A stretch of DNA of 64,000 nucleotides from Longimicrobium sp. (GTDB taxonomy: Bacteria > Gemmatimonadota > Gemmatimonadetes > Longimicrobiales > Longimicrobiaceae): assembly GCA_035689035.1 (NCBI GenBank), contig DASSME010000407.1, positions 28,054-92,053 of the forward strand, read 5' to 3'. A model generated the notes under the pieces. That model did not search any database, was not told the origin of the DNA, and saw only the letters and a program-made list of their open reading frames with translations. A program made the translations under genes and the position numbers. How positions within the stretch are numbered: position 1 is the stretch's first letter; every line of letters starts with the position of its first letter. This document shows positions 13,715-20,565 of the stretch, in pieces.

Positions 13715-15589
13715 ATGGACCGCACGTTCACCCAGATCCCCACGCTGCGCGGCCGGTGGCTGCGTCTGGCCCGCGCCACATGGCTCGCGGGTACGCTGCT
13801 GTCGCTGGCGCTCACCGGGTTCGGCGCGTACCGCTGGATGGTGTTCCAGGTCCGGGTGATGCCCGCGTTCCGCGCCGTGGGCCTTACCGCGCACGGCGCC
13901 GAGGCCGCCGCGGGGTTCCCGCTGATGGCCACCCCTGGCGGAGTGGCCGCGCGCGCCGGGGTGCGCCACGGCACCCTGCGGGCGGTGGACGGCACGCCCG
14001 TGCCCCCCGGCGCCACGCCGCGCGAGGTGGCGGCGCTGCTGAGCGGCAGGCCGGGAACGGCGGTGGCGCTCACCGTGGGCGACGATACGGGCGGCACGGC
14101 CACGTACCGGCTGGTGCGCCAGGGGCCGCGCGCGGCGGGGCCGGTGGCACAGGCGGAGCGCGAAACGCTGCTCGCCATCATCGCGCTGGTGTACGTGCTC
14201 GGGCTGGTGTCGGTCGCCGTCCTGCTGTTCGCGCGCCGGCCCGGCGACCCCGCGGCGTTGACGGTCTCGCTCGCGCTGGCGCTGGTCTCGGTCGGCAACA
14301 CGCTGGCGTGGCACGGCGGGCGCGACTTTCCCGCGCTGATGCCGGTGCTGCGCACGGTGGTGTGGGTGGGGATCATTCTCGCCTTCTGGTTCTTCTGCAT
14401 CTTCCCGGACGGGCGGATCGCGCCCTCGTGGACACGGGTGTGGGCCCTGCTGGTGCCGGGGTACGCCGCGGTGGTGGAGTTCGTGGCCGCCCGGCGGTCG
14501 GCGCCGGCGTTCTACGCGCTGATCGCGGGCGGGATGCTGCTGGGCGTGGTGGCGCAGGTGCAGCGATACCGCCGGGTGGCCTCGGACACGCAGCGGCAGC
14601 AGACCAAGTGGGTGGTGTTCGGGATCGCGGCGGCGATGGTGCTGTACGCCGCGGGCGGGCTGCTGGTACCGCTGGTCCCGCCGGCCGGGCACCCGGCGTG
14701 GGCCGCGTGGCGCGAGGTGGTGCAGGAGACGCTCACCACCTGGGGGCTCCTCCCGATCCCCGCCGGCCTGGCCGTCTCGCTCCTGCGCTACCGCCTGTGG
14801 GACGCCGACGCCGTGCTCTCGCGCAGCGCCACCTACGCGCTGCTCACCGTGGCCCTCGCCGCCACCTGGGCGGGGATGAGCCAGGTGGCGCAGGGCGTCC
14901 TCGGCGGAATGATGGGCGCGGAGAGCGGCGCCACCGCGGCCGGGCTGTCGGCGGCGCTCACGGTGGCGCTCTTCAACCCCGCGCACGACCGGGTGCGCCG
15001 CTGGGCCGACCGCCGCTTTCTTCGCGACCTGGTGGAGTTCCGCGAGCGCCTGCCGACCGTGGTCGGCGACCTCCGCGAGACGGAAGACCTGGACGGATTG
15101 CTGGCCGTGGTGCTGGCGCGCGTCTGCACGGCGCTGCGCTGCGGCCGGGCGGCGGTGTTCCTGGGGGATGATGGGCGCACCCTCGCCGCCTCGCGCGGCC
15201 TGCCGCCCGACGTCGCCGCCGACAGCGCAGCCGACTGGCCCGCCGCGGCCGAGGACGAAGGGCCGATCGTGCAGGACTGGAACTACGAGATCTTTCCGCT
15301 GCGGGTGCGGCTGGCGGCGGAGCGCGGAGGCACGCCGGTGCGCGTGGGTTGGCTGGCGCTGGGCCCGCGCCCCGACGGCAGCGGCTACGGCAGCGACGAG
15401 CTCGAGGCGCTGGCCGCGGTCGCCGGCCCCATCGCCCGCGCCATCTGGATCGTGCGCGCCCGCGCCGAGCGTGAGGAGGAGCTCGAACGCCGCCTCCAGG
15501 CCGCCGAAGACGAGTTGCGGCGGGCGCGGCCGCGGATCGCGCTGGAAGGGACGGGGATCGCGGTGGATGGAAGCGGCGCCGTGGCCTGA
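13715..15589 (+). CDS. Multi-pass membrane sensor-like protein (PDZ-like + TM bundle + GAF-like), no output domain
   Basis: 'GGVAARAGVRHG.LRAVDG' PDZ-like; 'LLRYRLWDAD' and 'GWLALGPRPDGSGYGSDELEAL' typical of GAF-linked sensor N-termini. Confidence 0.7.
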   Translation: MDRTFTQIPTLRGRWLRLARATWLAGTLLSLALTGFGAYRWMVFQVRVMPAFRAVGLTAHGAEAAAGFPLMATPGGVAARAGVRHGTLRAVDGTPVPPGATPREVAALLSGRPGTAVALTVGDDTGGTATYRLVRQGPRAAGPVAQAERETLLAIIALVYVLGLVSVAVLLFARRPGDPAALTVSLALALVSVGNTLAWHGGRDFPALMPVLRTVVWVGIILAFWFFCIFPDGRIAPSWTRVWALLVPGYAAVVEFVAARRSAPAFYALIAGGMLLGVVAQVQRYRRVASDTQRQQTKWVVFGIAAAMVLYAAGGLLVPLVPPAGHPAWAAWREVVQETLTTWGLLPIPAGLAVSLLRYRLWDADAVLSRSATYALLTVALAATWAGMSQVAQGVLGGMMGAESGATAAGLSAALTVALFNPAHDRVRRWADRRFLRDLVEFRERLPTVVGDLRETEDLDGLLAVVLARVCTALRCGRAAVFLGDDGRTLAASRGLPPDVAADSAADWPAAAEDEGPIVQDWNYEIFPLRVRLAAERGGTPVRVGWLALGPRPDGSGYGSDELEALAAVAGPIARAIWIVRARAEREEELERRLQAAEDELRRARPRIALEGTGIAVDGSGAVA

Positions 15590-15870: not shown

Positions 15871-17283
15871 TCAGCCGCCGGTGAGTGCCGGCCGCGCCAC
15901 CGCGGAGACCGCCGCCACCTCGTCCCCCCGCCACACCGCCGCGTCCGTCTGGCCCAGCAGGCGGCTGGTGATGGCGCCGGCCGTCATCGCGCCGTTCACG
16001 TTGACGGCGGTGCGGCCCATGTCGATCAGCGGCTCGATCGAGATCAGCAGCCCCGCCAGCGCGATCGGGAGGTTGAGCGTGGAGAGCACCACGATCGCCG
16101 CGAAGGTGGCCCCGCCGCCCACCCCGGCGATACCGAACGAGCCGAGCGTCACCACCACGACCAGCGTGAGCAGGAAGTGCGGGTCGGCCGGGTTCACGCC
16201 CACGCTCGGCGCGATCATCACCGCCAGCATCGCGGGATAGAGCCCCGCGCACCCGTTCTGCCCGATGGTCGCCCCGAAGCTGGCGGCGAAGTTGGCGATC
16301 GCCGGCGGCACGCCCAGGCGGTCGGTCTGCGCCTGCACGTTCAGCGGGATGGTGGCGGCGCTGGAGCGGCTGGTGAACGCAAAGGTCAGCACCGGCCACA
16401 CCCGCGCGTAGTAGCGCAGCGGGTCGACGCCGGAGAGCGCCAGCAGCGCCGCGTGCACCAGCAGGATCAGCGCGAGGCCCAGGTACGACGCCGCGACGAA
16501 GCGGATCAGGGCCAGGATGTCCGCGGGGTTCGAGGTGGCGACCACCTTCACCATCAGCGCCAGCACGCCGTACGGGGTCAGCCGGATCACCATCCGCACC
16601 AGCCGCAGCACCAGCTTCTGCAGCGCGTCGATGGTGGCGACCACGCGGCCGCCCGTCTCGGGGTCGCTCCGCCGCAGCCCCAGCGCGGCCAGCCCCAGCA
16701 GCGTGGCGAAGATCACCACGCCGATGATGGAGGTCGGCCGCGTCCCCGCCAGGTCCGCGAAGGGATTCGTCGGGATGAAGGAGAGGAGGAGCTGCGGCAC
16801 GTCCAGCTGCGCCACCTCGGCGGATTTCGCCTGGATCGCGGCGCCCTGCTGCAGCTCGCGCGCGCCGTGCACCAGGCCGTTCGCCGTCAGCCCGAACGCC
16901 CGCGCCACGCCGATGCCGATCACCGCCGAGAGCGCCGTGGTGAGCATCAGCGCGCCGAGCACGCCCAGGCTGATCTTCCCCAGCGCCCGCGCGTCGTCCA
17001 GCCGGGTGACGGCGGAAAGGATGGAGACCAGCACGAGCGGGTAGACGATCATCTGCAGCAGCCGCACGTAGCCGCCGCCCACGATGCTCACCCAGCTCAC
17101 CGTCCGCGCGGCGGCGGCGCCGTCGCGGCCGTAGATCCACTGCAGCGCGGCACCCAGCGCCGCGCCCAGCAGCAGGCCGATCAGCACCGTGCCGGCCAGC
17201 GGCGCCCTGGCGCGCCCGCGCCGGGCGAGGAACGCCAGCGCCAGCGCGAACACACCCAGGTTCAGGATCACTTGCACGATCAT
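15871..17283 (-). CDS. tcyP: L-cystine transporter (DAACS family)
   Basis: '[18 protein letters not shown]', '[18 protein letters not shown]', '[15 protein letters not shown]', '[13 protein letters not shown]'. Confidence 0.9.
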
Positions 17284-17330
17284 GGTTGCTCCGTGGCACG
17301 CCGGGCGTGCCCTCGAACCTCAGGTGGATG

Positions 17331-17369
17331 AAAAAGCCGGCTCCCTCGTCATCGCGAGAGAGCCGGCTT
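17331..17369 (-). terminator. Attenuator terminator 2 (proximal to tcyP)
   Basis: Minus strand aagccggctctctcg-loop-cgagggagccggc-TTTTT. Confidence 0.8.
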
Positions 17370-17400
17370 CGCAGTACCGGCGCGTGGGCCGGATCGGCGG

Positions 17401-17493
17401 TCAGGGGGCGCGCCGCAGGGGCGCGCACACCCCGGCATCTCGCGGGGGCGGGCGGCAACAACAGGCGGTCGGCTTCGACTGGATCATCATCAT
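17401..17493 (-). CDS. Cys-rich leader peptide 2 (MMMIQSKPTACCCRPPPRDAGVCAPLRRAP)
   Basis: Short ORF with tandem TGT TGT TGC, directly upstream of the terminator and tcyP. Confidence 0.75.
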   Translation of the reverse strand: MMMIQSKPTACCCRPPPRDAGVCAPLRRAP

Positions 17494-17540
17494 CGCTCGG
17501 TTCGGTTCAACCGGTGGACAGGACCCGGTTGCGGGGACGC

Positions 17541-17569
17541 AAAAAAGGCCCTCCCGCCGGGGAGGGCCT
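17541..17569 (-). terminator. Attenuator terminator 1 (distal)
   Basis: Minus strand ggccctccc-cggc-gggagggcc-TTTTTT. Confidence 0.8.
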
Positions 17570-17611
17570 GACAGGGACGGCCGGAGTGTGGCTCCCGGCT
17601 TACGCGAATCG

Positions 17612-17689
17612 CTACGCGCGCACGTCCCCGCGGCTCCCCGGACGGGAGTCGCACGGACAGCAACAGGCGGCGCGGACGAAGGCGTGCAT
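17612..17689 (-). CDS. Cys-rich leader peptide 1 (MHAFVRAACCCPCDSRPGSRGDVRA)
   Basis: Short ORF with TGT TGC TGT CCG TGC upstream of terminator 1. Confidence 0.75.
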   Translation of the reverse strand: MHAFVRAACCCPCDSRPGSRGDVRA

Positions 17690-18037
17690 CGGTGGGTTTC
17701 GGGTGATCCGCTCGCGCCGGGGAAACATCCGCGGCGCCGCTGGAGGTTAAGCCACGCTCCCGGCCGCTGTCAACCCGCGCCGGGCTCCGCGGGACGAACC
17801 GTTCCCCCGTGGACGCGGAGCGCTTGCCGCGTCCGCCGGCCGCGCTTCAATTCATCGCCGCTCCACCTTCATCCACGTGCTCCCGCCCGGATCGAAGCCC
17901 GTGCCGCGCTCCCTCCCCTCGCCCGCACCGGCGGCCGCCGTCCACGCCGGCGGACGTCGTGTCGCCGCCGCCGCCGCGGATGCATCCGCCCGGCTCCCCC
18001 CGCGGCCCGCATCCGGACCCTGGCCGGCGAGCCGCCG

Positions 18038-19513
18038 ATGAGCCACGCCTTCACCGCGCTCGACTGGGCGGTCCTGGTCGCGTACCTCGGCGGCGTGACG
18101 GCGATGGGAACGCTGCTGGGGCGCCGCCAGAAGGACGCGCGCGACTACTTCCTGGCGGACAACACCATCCCCTGGTGGGCGATCTGCTTCAGCGTGGTGG
18201 CGACGGAGACCAGCGCCCTCACCTTCATCAGCGTGCCGGCCACCGCGTACGGCAGCGACTTCTGGATGCTGCAGCTCGCCACGGGGTACGTGATCGGCCG
18301 GGTGGCGGTGGCCGCGCTACTCCTTCCCGGCTACTTCCGCGGCGAAACGGTGACGGCGTACGCGCTGCTCGAGCGCCGCTTCGGCGCGGGGACGCGGCGG
18401 TTCGCCTCGTCGGTGTTCCTGGTGACGCGGGTGCTGGCCGACGGGGTGCGCGTGTTCGCCACGGCGATCCCGATCCGCCTGGTCACCGGGCTGCCGTACT
18501 GGGAGGCGATCCTGGTCACGGGCGTGTTCACCGTGATCTACACCTACCACGGCGGCCTGCGCGCCGTGGTGTGGGTGGACGTGGTGCAGCTCTTCGTCTA
18601 CCTGGTGGGCGGCGGGGCGGCGCTGTGGGTGCTGGCGCGGCTGGTCCCCGGCGGGTGGAGCGCCATCTGGGCCGCCGCGCCGGGGAAGACGCGCGTGGTG
18701 CACCTGGACGGCGGGTTCGCGAGCGCGAGCTGGATCGCCACGGGGCTGGTGGGCGGCGCGTTCCTCTCCATGGCCTCGCACGGGGTCGATCACCTGATCG
18801 TGCAGCGGCTGCTGGCCAGCCGCGGCCTGGGCGACGCGCGCAAGGCCCTGGTCGCCAGCGGCGTGGTGGTGGTGATGCAGTTCGCGCTCTTCCTCTGCGT
18901 GGGGCTGGGCCTGTTCGTCTTCTACCGGGGGCGGACGTTCGGCGCGCCGGACGAGATCTTTCCCACCTTCATCGTCAACGAGCTGCCGCCGGGCGTGACC
19001 GGGCTGGTGATCGCCGCGATCCTGGCGGCCGCGATGAGCACGGTGGCCAGCTCGCTCAACTCGCTGGCCTCGTCCGCCACGCACGACCTGTACGCCCCGC
19101 TCACCGGCCGCACCGGCGAAGCGCACCTGATGCGCGTGGGGAAGCTGATGACGCTGGGGTGGGCCGCCGTGCTGATCGGCGCGGCGATGCTGTTCCAGCT
19201 CGCGCAGCAGGGCACGCCGGTGGTGGTGGTGGCGCTGCAGATCGCCAGCTTCACCTACGGCGGGCTGCTGGGTGGATTCCTGCTCGCCCGTTTCTCGCGT
19301 CGCGCCACCGCGCCCGACGCGGTGGCGGGCATGGCGGTTGCCATCGCGCTGATGGCCGCGCTCTGGGCCGCCCAGCAGTTCGGCGCGATCCCCAGGGTGA
19401 TCGACAGCCTGTGGTTCTCGCTGCTGGGCTCGGCCGTCACGCTGGCAGTGGGGATGGGGCTGGCGGCGGCGAGGGGGCGGCCCGTGGTCGCACCCTCCTC
19501 CACCCCGGGTTGA
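18038..19513 (+). CDS. Sodium:solute symporter
   Basis: 'SVVATETSALTFISVP', 'GGLRAVVWVDVVQ', 'AAAMSTVASSLNSLAS'; start at MSHAFTALDW. Confidence 0.92.
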   Translation: MSHAFTALDWAVLVAYLGGVTAMGTLLGRRQKDARDYFLADNTIPWWAICFSVVATETSALTFISVPATAYGSDFWMLQLATGYVIGRVAVAALLLPGYFRGETVTAYALLERRFGAGTRRFASSVFLVTRVLADGVRVFATAIPIRLVTGLPYWEAILVTGVFTVIYTYHGGLRAVVWVDVVQLFVYLVGGGAALWVLARLVPGGWSAIWAAAPGKTRVVHLDGGFASASWIATGLVGGAFLSMASHGVDHLIVQRLLASRGLGDARKALVASGVVVVMQFALFLCVGLGLFVFYRGRTFGAPDEIFPTFIVNELPPGVTGLVIAAILAAAMSTVASSLNSLASSATHDLYAPLTGRTGEAHLMRVGKLMTLGWAAVLIGAAMLFQLAQQGTPVVVVALQIASFTYGGLLGGFLLARFSRRATAPDAVAGMAVAIALMAALWAAQQFGAIPRVIDSLWFSLLGSAVTLAVGMGLAAARGRPVVAPSSTPG

Positions 19514-19749: not shown

Positions 19750-20565
19750 GTGGATTTCTCTCTGTTGCTGAAGGCGGCGGTGATGGGGCTGGTGGAGGGG
19801 GCGACGGAGTTCATCCCCGTTTCGTCGACCGGGCACCTGATCCTGGCGGCCGACTGGCTGGGCTTCGACCAGTGGCACGGCGCCGAGACCTTCGAGGTGT
19901 TCATCCAGCTGGGCGCCATCCTGGCCGTGGTCTGGCTCTACCGCGCCAAGATCCTGGGCGTGCTGGGCAGCGCCACGCGCGAAGAGAAGTCGCGCCGGCT
20001 GATCGTGAACCTGGCGATCGCCTTCCTCCCCGCGGCGCTGATCGGCTTCCTGATCCACGACTTCATCAAGGAGAAGCTGTTCAGCCCCGTGGTGGTGGCC
20101 ATCGCCCTGGTCGTCGGCGGGGTCGTCATCCTGCTGATCGAAGGGTGGCACCGGCGCGTGCACACCGAGTCGGTCGACGACATCCGGCCCAGGGAGGCGC
20201 TGGGGGTGGGCCTCTGCCAGGTCCTGTCGCTGATCCCCGGCACCTCTCGCTCGGGGTCCACCATCATGGGCGGCGTGGCGCTGGGGCTGAGCCGGGTGGC
20301 GGCCACGGAGTTCAGCTTCTTCCTGGCCATTCCCATCATGTTCATGGCCACGCTGTACGACCTGTACAAGGCCCGCCACGGCCTGGCGGGCGCCGACGCG
20401 CCGGTGTTCGCGGTGGGCTTCGTCGTGTCGTTCATCTCCGCGCTGCTGGTCATCCGCTGGCTGCTCAAGTTCGTGGCCAACCACAGCTTCCGCGGCTTCG
20501 CGTGGTACCGCATCGTCTTCGGCATCATCCTGCTCGCCCTCTACTGGAAGACGATGGGAGCGTGA
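19750..20565 (+). CDS. uppP: Undecaprenyl-diphosphate phosphatase
   Basis: 'GLVEGATEFIPVSSTGHL', 'PGTSRSGSTI'. Confidence 0.96.
   Translation: MDFSLLLKAAVMGLVEGATEFIPVSSTGHLILAADWLGFDQWHGAETFEVFIQLGAILAVVWLYRAKILGVLGSATREEKSRRLIVNLAIAFLPAALIGFLIHDFIKEKLFSPVVVAIALVVGGVVILLIEGWHRRVHTESVDDIRPREALGVGLCQVLSLIPGTSRSGSTIMGGVALGLSRVAATEFSFFLAIPIMFMATLYDLYKARHGLAGADAPVFAVGFVVSFISALLVIRWLLKFVANHSFRGFAWYRIVFGIILLALYWKTMGA

Follow-up and report, generated by a model that had tools for sequence, protein, structure and literature searches.

Two predicted cysteine-sensing attenuators in series upstream of the cystine symporter gene tcyP in Longimicrobium

In a soil Longimicrobium sp., a member of the Gemmatimonadota, the cystine symporter gene tcyP is preceded by a leader of about 490 nt in which two short upstream open reading frames (uORFs) with runs of cysteine codons are each followed by a U-tailed terminator. 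We consider it quite likely, from the sequence and from modelled folds, that both units are transcription attenuators that sense the supply of Cys-tRNA and operate in series before tcyP. The leader is located on the minus strand of a window of 64,000 nt (GenBank assembly GCA_035689035.1, contig DASSME010000407.1, positions 28,054 to 92,053), to which all coordinates below refer, and the whole feature begins with the promoter (17773) and ends at the start of tcyP. A first-pass annotation of this window had already described two serial units of uORF and U-tailed terminator at this site; we found both of them on the minus strand, and they are conserved in every orthologous locus examined.

Results

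Architecture of the tcyP leader

In the 5' to 3' direction, the leader consists of a promoter, a stem-loop, uORF1, terminator 1, a 46-nt spacer, uORF2, terminator 2, a GGAG motif and tcyP itself. A single leader therefore holds two full units of sensor and terminator with no promoter between them; the spacer is not conserved and contains no promoter-like pair of boxes. The predicted transcription start is separated by about 55 nt from uORF1, with a conserved hairpin in between, and by about 250 nt from uORF2.

By translation, uORF1 (17612..17689, minus strand, as are all leader features) comprises 25 codons and a TAG stop codon, and 13 of 14 relatives share its start codon, frame and stop in the alignment. 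Its sensor codons (17651..17665) are codons 9, 10, 11 and 13 (TGT TGC TGT .. TGC), which places four cysteines within five codons, a segment in which the relatives differ mainly by synonymous TGT/TGC changes. Terminator 1 (17540..17569) is formed by a G+C-rich stem of 10 bp (17569-17546) with a 4-nt loop and is followed by six U; its folding energy is -21.5 kcal/mol, and the stem is almost invariant in the 14 relatives. In the second unit, uORF2 (17401..17493) comprises 30 codons and a TGA stop codon, again by translation, and is kept in at least ten relatives, with sensor codons at positions 11-13 (17455..17463; TGT TGT TGC). Terminator 2 (17331..17369; -29 kcal/mol) has a stem of 13-15 bp (approximately 17369-17334), a 6-nt loop and five U, the last stem pairs extending into the five T at 17335-17331. 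Its stem is 89% paired across the aligned sequences, with three pairs that show a change on both sides; a simple terminator scanner missed it only since its loop and stem are larger than the pattern used.

With the start of uORF2 set at 17493, an alanine directly precedes the cysteine run in both uORFs, as the first-pass annotation had stated. The conservation of the uORFs, on which that annotation had made its reading depend, was also seen in the relatives, where the start codon (ATG or GTG), the frame and the cysteine run are aligned. The N-terminal codons vary freely, while start codon and cysteine run keep frame and register.

Predicted switch between terminator and antiterminator

Folding of the RNA in the absence of a ribosome yielded, in both units, a local hairpin with the terminator downstream of it. 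For the stalled state, the A site was placed on either the first or the second cysteine codon, the bases under such a ribosome were blocked, and the RNA was folded up to the terminator loop. The segments defined by these folds follow the same order in both units, with region 1 starting in or just after the cysteine codons and region 2 located at uORF codons 18-21 or thereabouts. In unit 1, region 1 (17644..17658) is the 5' half of the local hairpin in the minimum free energy (MFE) fold without ribosome and overlaps the last cysteine codons; region 2 (17623..17641) pairs in the constrained folds with either region 1 or the 5' arm of the terminator; and region 3 (17557..17579) is the 3' strand of the antiterminator, which includes this 5' arm. 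The corresponding segments of unit 2 are region 1 at 17442..17450, where the 5' strand of the local hairpin is made up of proline codons, region 2 at 17428..17444, again a partner of either region 1 or the terminator 5' arm, and region 3 at 17353..17365, the portion of the terminator 2 5' arm that is used by the antiterminator. In unit 1, the local helix of regions 1 and 2 is 92% paired across 14 sequences, with two-sided changes at four pairs; for unit 2 the figure is 98.6%, across 10 sequences.

In the stalled-state folds, the 5' arm of the terminator was paired with region 2 in 14 of 14 unit-1 and 8 of 8 unit-2 sequences open to scoring. In the window itself, the full-length MFE structure of unit 1 loses the terminator when the ribosome is stalled (-63.8 kcal/mol) and retains it when the ribosome is placed at the stop codon. 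The antiterminator that the first-pass annotation had presupposed is thus predicted in both units as an alternative 2:3 pairing: it uses bases that also belong to the terminator 5' arm, and the 5' half of the hairpin that blocks it lies within the ribosome footprint of the cysteine codons. According to these models, both units are of the classical 1:2 / 2:3 / 3:4 attenuator design.

Comparison of sequences points in the same direction. Consensus folding of the alignments recovered both the terminated and the antiterminated state. Standard pairs made up 94% of the cells for the terminated state of unit 1 and 89% for its antiterminator, and 92% for each of the two states of unit 2, compared with 38-70% in slid controls for all four structures. 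Single exchanges follow the dual pairing of region 2 as well: in unit 2, a G-to-C exchange that is specific to the window lies in region 2 and is matched by the reciprocal exchange, C to G, in the terminator 5' arm (alignment columns 34/130), and in one relative of the scaffold (L116) a U-A pair of the terminator stem is swapped to A-U, with region 2 changed correspondingly. In an alignment of 34 family members, which was fitted to the model, two-sided changes affect 14 of the 23 pairs in the terminated state, a number reached by 0 of 500 shuffles.

Codon usage and chance expectation

The source of the window is a metagenome-assembled genome (MAG) of 6.5 Mb and 72% G+C, in an 83%-complete assembly. 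Taking 1994 long open reading frames of this genome with high G+C content at third codon positions as a base, cysteine accounts for 0.7% of all codons, and TGT for 5.3% of the cysteine codons (379 TGT vs 6797 TGC), in agreement with the rarity of TGT claimed in the first-pass annotation. In the cysteine runs of unit 1, by comparison, TGT makes up 34 of 55 cysteine codons (62%) over 14 sequences, and in those unit-2 runs that could be scored it makes up about half or more. The only gene for a cysteine tRNA found in the assembly has the anticodon GCA, so that TGT would be read by wobble pairing.

Over both strands of the 6.5-Mb genome, we counted approximately 1185 terminator-like sites and 1015 TGY-TGY-TGY words. 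Small open reading frames that are linked to a terminator and contain three cysteines within five codons number ten, two of which are uORF1 and uORF2; their double arrangement with terminators is more than chance. Among the remaining eight candidates, the two with a cysteine triplet were inspected, leaving six uninspected, and both proved to be artefacts: C353 is situated within a coding region, and the terminator of C440 belongs to the upstream gene. An apparent tryptophan leader, C534, was rejected because it lies inside a gene.

Distribution of single and double leaders

Close orthologs of tcyP (76-80% identity) are present in 7 of the 25 genus members that were sampled first. A covariance model built from unit 1 matched strongly in 12 species-level genomes among the 37 of Longimicrobium, and in all 12 the full double layout is found directly before tcyP. 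The one genome of the genus in this set that consists of a single contig (G192) gave no strong match. The double layout also precedes tcyP in a MAG of the Gemmatimonadaceae (L035). In another Gemmatimonadota MAG (L032), tcyP has a single unit of the first type before it. The same holds for four contigs from MAGs (L036, L038, L041, L048), whose labels read Acidobacteria or, which is implausible, Bifidobacteriaceae. Two of these contigs, L036 and L041, are titled 'uncultured Bifidobacteriaceae', their leaders have a G+C content of about 68%, and one of them is nearly identical to the Acidobacteria MAG contig L038; the Bifidobacteriaceae labels of both look wrong. The element is patchy both in Longimicrobium and in the acidobacterial order around one carrier, where 2 of 81 genomes have it, and TcyP proteins across Gemmatimonadota and Acidobacteria share 63-73% identity. 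This patchiness, set against the degree of identity, suggests that tcyP and its leader may move together by horizontal transfer. Some 60-odd gammaproteobacterial tcyP loci had no comparable uORF upstream.

Each unit matches its own covariance model over the full length, and also that of the other unit, there with 20-32 bits, which marks the two as old duplicates of one scaffold. When run on its own genome, the unit-1 model returned the known copy only. In the phylum sample, the unit-2 model returned, besides its own copy, a cross-match to a metY leader, a partial match of 58 nt elsewhere in the genome that holds this metY leader, and one weak match without a uORF.

A proline stretch in the second unit

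Directly downstream of its cysteine run, uORF2 encodes an Arg/His-Pro-Pro-Pro-Gly/Arg-Asp stretch (17440-17454, minus strand) that is invariant in all unit-2 copies examined and overlaps the hairpin of regions 1 and 2. The Pro-Pro-Pro-Gly sequence may cause a pause over region 2 that depends on elongation factor P (EF-P), or it may be a mere by-product of RNA pairing. At the position that matches this stretch, the metY leaders described below encode Pro-Pro-Gly.

The proline stretch forms the basis of an alternative in which only one of the units is a working cysteine sensor, the other being either a decaying duplicate that works as a constitutive partial terminator or a sensor for another input. 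In the latter case, a ribosome slowed at Pro-Pro-Pro-Gly, by low Pro-tRNA or low EF-P activity, would sit on region 2 and thereby promote termination, and the pair would integrate two signals. The invariance of the stretch in unit 2 is in line with this proposal, as is the greater variability of the unit-2 cysteine runs, which range from three cysteines in a row to two over four codons, and tandem attenuators with different inputs have a precedent in Salmonella mgtCBR (PMC3641672). However, the 5' half of the conserved hairpin consists of these same proline codons, which do not vary at any of the three codon positions, and a constraint on the RNA alone suffices to explain this. Moreover, every copy of unit 2 keeps at least two cysteine codons at the sensor position, and the geometry between cysteine codons and region 1 is the same in both units. 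We therefore regard a single working sensor as improbable and two cysteine sensors in series as the better account of the leader.

Position of the tcyP ribosome-binding site

The only cysteine-sensing uORFs with experimental proof, the polycysteine small open reading frames (sORFs) of mycobacteria, act by unmasking a ribosome-binding site (bioRxiv 10.1101/834739). By analogy, the uORFs of the tcyP leader could act on translation or on mRNA stability, with hairpins that are not regulated terminators. The ribosome-binding site of tcyP, read from the sequence as GGAG (17289..17292, minus strand) and found 5-8 nt before the start in orthologs, speaks against such a mode of action: it is located about 40 nt past terminator 2, is part of no conserved pairing and is unpaired in the folds, and the alternative pairing is aimed at the terminator 5' arm instead of the ribosome-binding site. 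In addition, both G+C-rich stems run directly into a tract of five to six U, a feature conserved in all orthologs. These observations make a translational or stability-based mechanism very improbable and are in keeping with control of transcription termination in both units.

Re-coding of the scaffold before other genes

The first-pass annotation had pointed to a search of the phylum for cysteine uORFs with terminators ahead of sulfur genes, and such leaders are indeed present before genes of the metY, rhodanese and DsbD_N types. We located relatives of the scaffold in the phylum with the unit-1 covariance model and identified the genes downstream by Pfam. An attenuator with alternating methionine and cysteine codons, in one copy only, precedes the gene for an enzyme of the O-acetylhomoserine sulfhydrylase (metY) type in ten or more Longimicrobium genomes (PF01053; L119:1501-1700, and also L136, L138, L139, L141, L143, L145, L146 and L149), and Met/Cys codons are likewise found before a metY-type gene in two other genera. 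The alternation suggests that this leader could be a dual sensor of methionine and cysteine. The 83%-complete assembly that holds the window has no metY ortholog, only a paralog of 44-49% identity without a leader. Cysteine runs with a terminator precede a rhodanese gene in L117 and the gene for a DsbD_N protein in L116, and in L158 a Met-Met-Met-Cys-Cys-Cys run, also with a terminator, precedes a TonB-receptor-like gene (assigned by eye, not checked with Pfam). The leaders of L116, L117 and L158 hint at a wider sulfur regulon in the phylum that is read by ribosomes. Finally, phenylalanine-rich or Phe/Tyr-rich versions of the scaffold are found before the prephenate dehydratase gene (pheA) in L118 and L120, which belong to other Gemmatimonadota genera. 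It appears that one RNA frame has been re-coded for different amino acids.

Since the identity of the codons tracks the target gene, the leader would be read by ribosomes and not by a ligand or a protein, and this is our strongest argument. The least probable of the alternatives considered here is an untranslated structured RNA, riboswitch-like or protein-bound, with incidental cysteine codons, which is favoured by much conservation at the RNA level and by the weak start signals of the uORFs (see below), but which is at odds with the in-frame alignment of start codon and cysteine run next to a variable N-terminal peptide part, with TGT/TGC exchanges that preserve cysteine, with codons that turn to Met/Cys or Phe precisely in the leaders of metY or pheA, and with the outcome of an Rfam scan of 16800-18300, in which no match passed E 0.3 or came close to a gathering score.

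Observations that count against the model

Several findings weigh against a pair of cysteine-sensing attenuators of the kind proposed here. The first group concerns the folds. In unit 2 the terminator is thermodynamically favoured in every ribosome state, so that antitermination there must be kinetic, with 2:3 pairing established before region 4 is transcribed. The stop codons are located 10-12 codons past region 2, where a terminating ribosome leaves region 2 unmasked; termination in the replete state must therefore rely on the 1:2 hairpin refolding first, and the folds with a ribosome at the stop codon were mixed across sequences. Covariation among the close orthologs is modest, most stems being simply conserved, and a test of self versus non-self duplexes between region 2 and the terminator arms gave a weak signal (p ~0.04), with most arms alike. 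A further weak point is that constraints on the peptide and on the RNA are inseparable for the Pro-Pro-Pro-Gly stretch of uORF2, as it coincides with region 1.

The second group concerns translation and expression. There is no clear Shine-Dalgarno motif before uORF1 or uORF2, whereas tcyP has its GGAG, and the uORF start regions are predicted to be only marginally more accessible than the leader is on average, a difference that does not discriminate. Three metatranscriptome runs match small parts of the locus. In two of the metatranscriptome runs, both from one study, a contig of about 2.1 kb from a relative of about 91% identity spans tcyP and both units; this contig extends past the promoter, may represent DNA or read-through, and is uninformative on termination.

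The last point is a natural sequence. The closest relative, L031 (1080-1520; identical to L133), whose tcyP is 87% identical, keeps all hairpins, but has only two cysteines per uORF. Two of the cysteine codons of its uORF1 are now arginine codons, and its uORF2 has lost the stop codon by a frame shift, so that the frame reads through terminator 2. L031 may represent a relaxed variant that occurs in nature, or else its assembly may be in error.

Promoter and genomic context

The leader starts with a -35 box TTGACA (17768..17773, minus strand), a hexamer that occurs at the same distance in all orthologous loci of Longimicrobium and whose function is predicted from motif and conservation, followed after 17-18 nt by a -10 box TAACCT (17744..17749, minus strand) that is likewise conserved in the orthologs. 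A consensus promoter scanner reported no promoter in the leader, and the -10 box matches TATAAT at only three of six positions; we recognise the pair as a promoter because it is conserved across the orthologs, and on that ground only. Between the predicted transcription start and uORF1, a stem-loop (17714..17737, minus strand) folds with -21 kcal/mol (z -1.6), and the orthologs show a corresponding hairpin; it might act in RNA stability, in pausing or in timing the loading of the ribosome. Promoter pair (17744-17773) and 5' stem-loop are kept across the genus.

The gene tcyP (15871..17283, minus strand) encodes a cystine/cation symporter of 470 amino acids that belongs to the SDF (DAACS) family and matches the sodium:dicarboxylate symporter family of Pfam (PF00375, E 1e-98). 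Over its full length the protein is 56-61% identical to proteins of enterobacteria, Pseudomonas and Vibrio, and one such enterobacterial homologue, from Enterobacter soli, maps to E. coli tcyP, which is annotated as a cystine/sulfocysteine:cation symporter. As the sole gene of the predicted transcript, tcyP would be the only gene served by the leader, because the downstream gene is convergent and the upstream gene divergent. The convergent neighbour (13715-15589, plus strand) has weak matches to PDZ and GAF domains, below cutoff. The divergent neighbour (17189-19513, plus strand) is a sodium:solute symporter gene (PF00474) whose overlap with the leader is only a spurious 5' extension of the open frame. 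A gene for undecaprenyl-diphosphatase (BacA) is found nearby (19750-20565, plus strand).

Discussion

Classical leader-peptide attenuators, such as trpL, hisL, pheL, leuL, thrL and ilvL of E. coli and Salmonella, combine a short open reading frame containing a run of cognate codons with four RNA segments (1:2/3:4 vs 2:3) and a terminator before the gene, the codons being matched to the pathway. To our knowledge, terminator-based attenuation for cysteine is conspicuously missing from the textbook list. The leader described here shares all of these elements, but it would sense cysteine, its target is an importer and not a biosynthetic operon, and it consists of two units for the same signal in series, in Gemmatimonadota, without sequence or Rfam relationship to the classical examples. 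It also differs from trpL in that its stop codons are placed well beyond region 2, which makes masking by a terminating ribosome unlikely.

By the proposed mechanism, transcription would start from the conserved promoter, and a ribosome would translate uORF1 while RNA polymerase advances. With plentiful Cys-tRNA, the ribosome would clear the cysteine codons, the 1:2 hairpin would refold, and region 3 would be left free for the 3:4 terminator, halting transcription at the U tract. With scarce Cys-tRNA, a ribosome stalled on the cysteine codons would cover region 1, so that regions 2 and 3 could pair, block the terminator and permit read-through. Polymerases that escape terminator 1 would then face unit 2, where a new ribosome would have to stall on uORF2 in the same manner, and read-through into tcyP would be approximately the product of two probabilities. 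Serial doubling of this kind would make the basal level lower and the response steeper. Translation of the uORFs, and control of read-through by stalling within them, are what we infer from their sequence. In E. coli, CysB switches tcyP off once the cysteine pool suffices, and cystine import that overshoots is toxic, sensitising cells to peroxide (PMC7373191); because of this toxicity, a tight shut-off of tcyP makes sense.

Cysteine-specific leader peptides as such are not without precedent. Leader peptides with cysteine runs have been predicted before cys genes in Mycobacterium, Propionibacterium and Bifidobacterium, without terminators (PMC1262725), and the polycysteine sORFs of M. smegmatis, the 'Cys ribulon' of Canestrari et al., are leaderless and unmask a downstream ribosome-binding site (bioRxiv 10.1101/834739). 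The statement of the first-pass annotation that cysteine-type attenuators are little described thus needs to be narrowed: cysteine uORF attenuators are proven in mycobacteria, and what remains of the statement is that those are translational and have no terminator. In the mycobacterial system, too, consecutive cysteine codons of a tiny upstream reading frame report the supply of Cys-tRNA and switch on genes of sulfur and cysteine metabolism, at several loci per genome. The mycobacterial sORFs, however, are leaderless and lack an intrinsic terminator, whereas the tcyP uORFs are internal to the leader, each with its own terminator and predicted antiterminator, with U tracts in both units and the tcyP GGAG left free. 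To judge by its sequence, the tcyP leader is not a member of the mycobacterial leaderless class. In Deinococcus deserti, a leader peptide with two cysteines has been predicted before cysS; it is leaderless, single and 10 codons long (PMC4007540). It resembles the tcyP leader as a predicted attenuation peptide with cysteine codons outside Proteobacteria and Actinobacteria, but it stands before a tRNA synthetase gene and comes without structural analysis, whereas the tcyP leader is doubled and has an importer as its target.

Serial sensing units in one leader are also familiar from tandem riboswitches, which bind metabolites directly, and from T-boxes. With these and with the tandem attenuators of Salmonella mgtCBR, the tcyP leader has in common two complete sensing units in series, each with its own expression platform, and read-through as the product of two decisions. 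The mgtCBR attenuators respond to different inputs (PMC3641672) and have no classical intrinsic terminators, whereas both tcyP units would be read by ribosomes and respond to the same amino acid. Our literature search returned no paper that joins leader peptide, attenuation and Gemmatimonadetes, and a doubled, cysteine-specific attenuator of the terminator type was not found described in the literature searched. The novelty of the tcyP leader is the combination of cysteine specificity, intrinsic terminators, an importer as target and doubling for the same signal, in Gemmatimonadota, and this combination differs from all described cases with which we compared it.

One can ask how far this scheme might extend. 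It is conceivable, if rather doubtful, that the leader is a two-step gate, in which unit 1 would be a plain sensor of Cys-tRNA and unit 2 a cysteine sensor with an additional pause at Pro-Pro-Pro-Gly, so that tcyP would be switched on only when Cys-tRNA is in short supply during elongation that otherwise proceeds normally. In the same proposal, the re-codable scaffold, in its Cys, Met/Cys and Phe versions, would be the main amino-acid regulon system of Gemmatimonadota, a 'ribulon' in place of regulators of the CysB or CymR type, and some Acidobacteria would have acquired it together with tcyP.

Whereas the proven mycobacterial cases act on translation, the tcyP locus offers a conserved, terminator-based predicted sensor of cysteine. 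The occurrence of single and doubled forms in related genomes provides a natural comparison for the benefit of placing two units for the same signal in series, be it reduced leakiness, greater steepness of the response or a second input, and the toxicity of the importer on overshoot in E. coli (PMC7373191) gives a physiological reason for tight control. Beyond tcyP, the Met/Cys and Phe versions of the scaffold illustrate how amino-acid homeostasis may be wired in a phylum in which few regulators have been studied, and the scaffold offers compact parts for synthetic amino-acid sensors.

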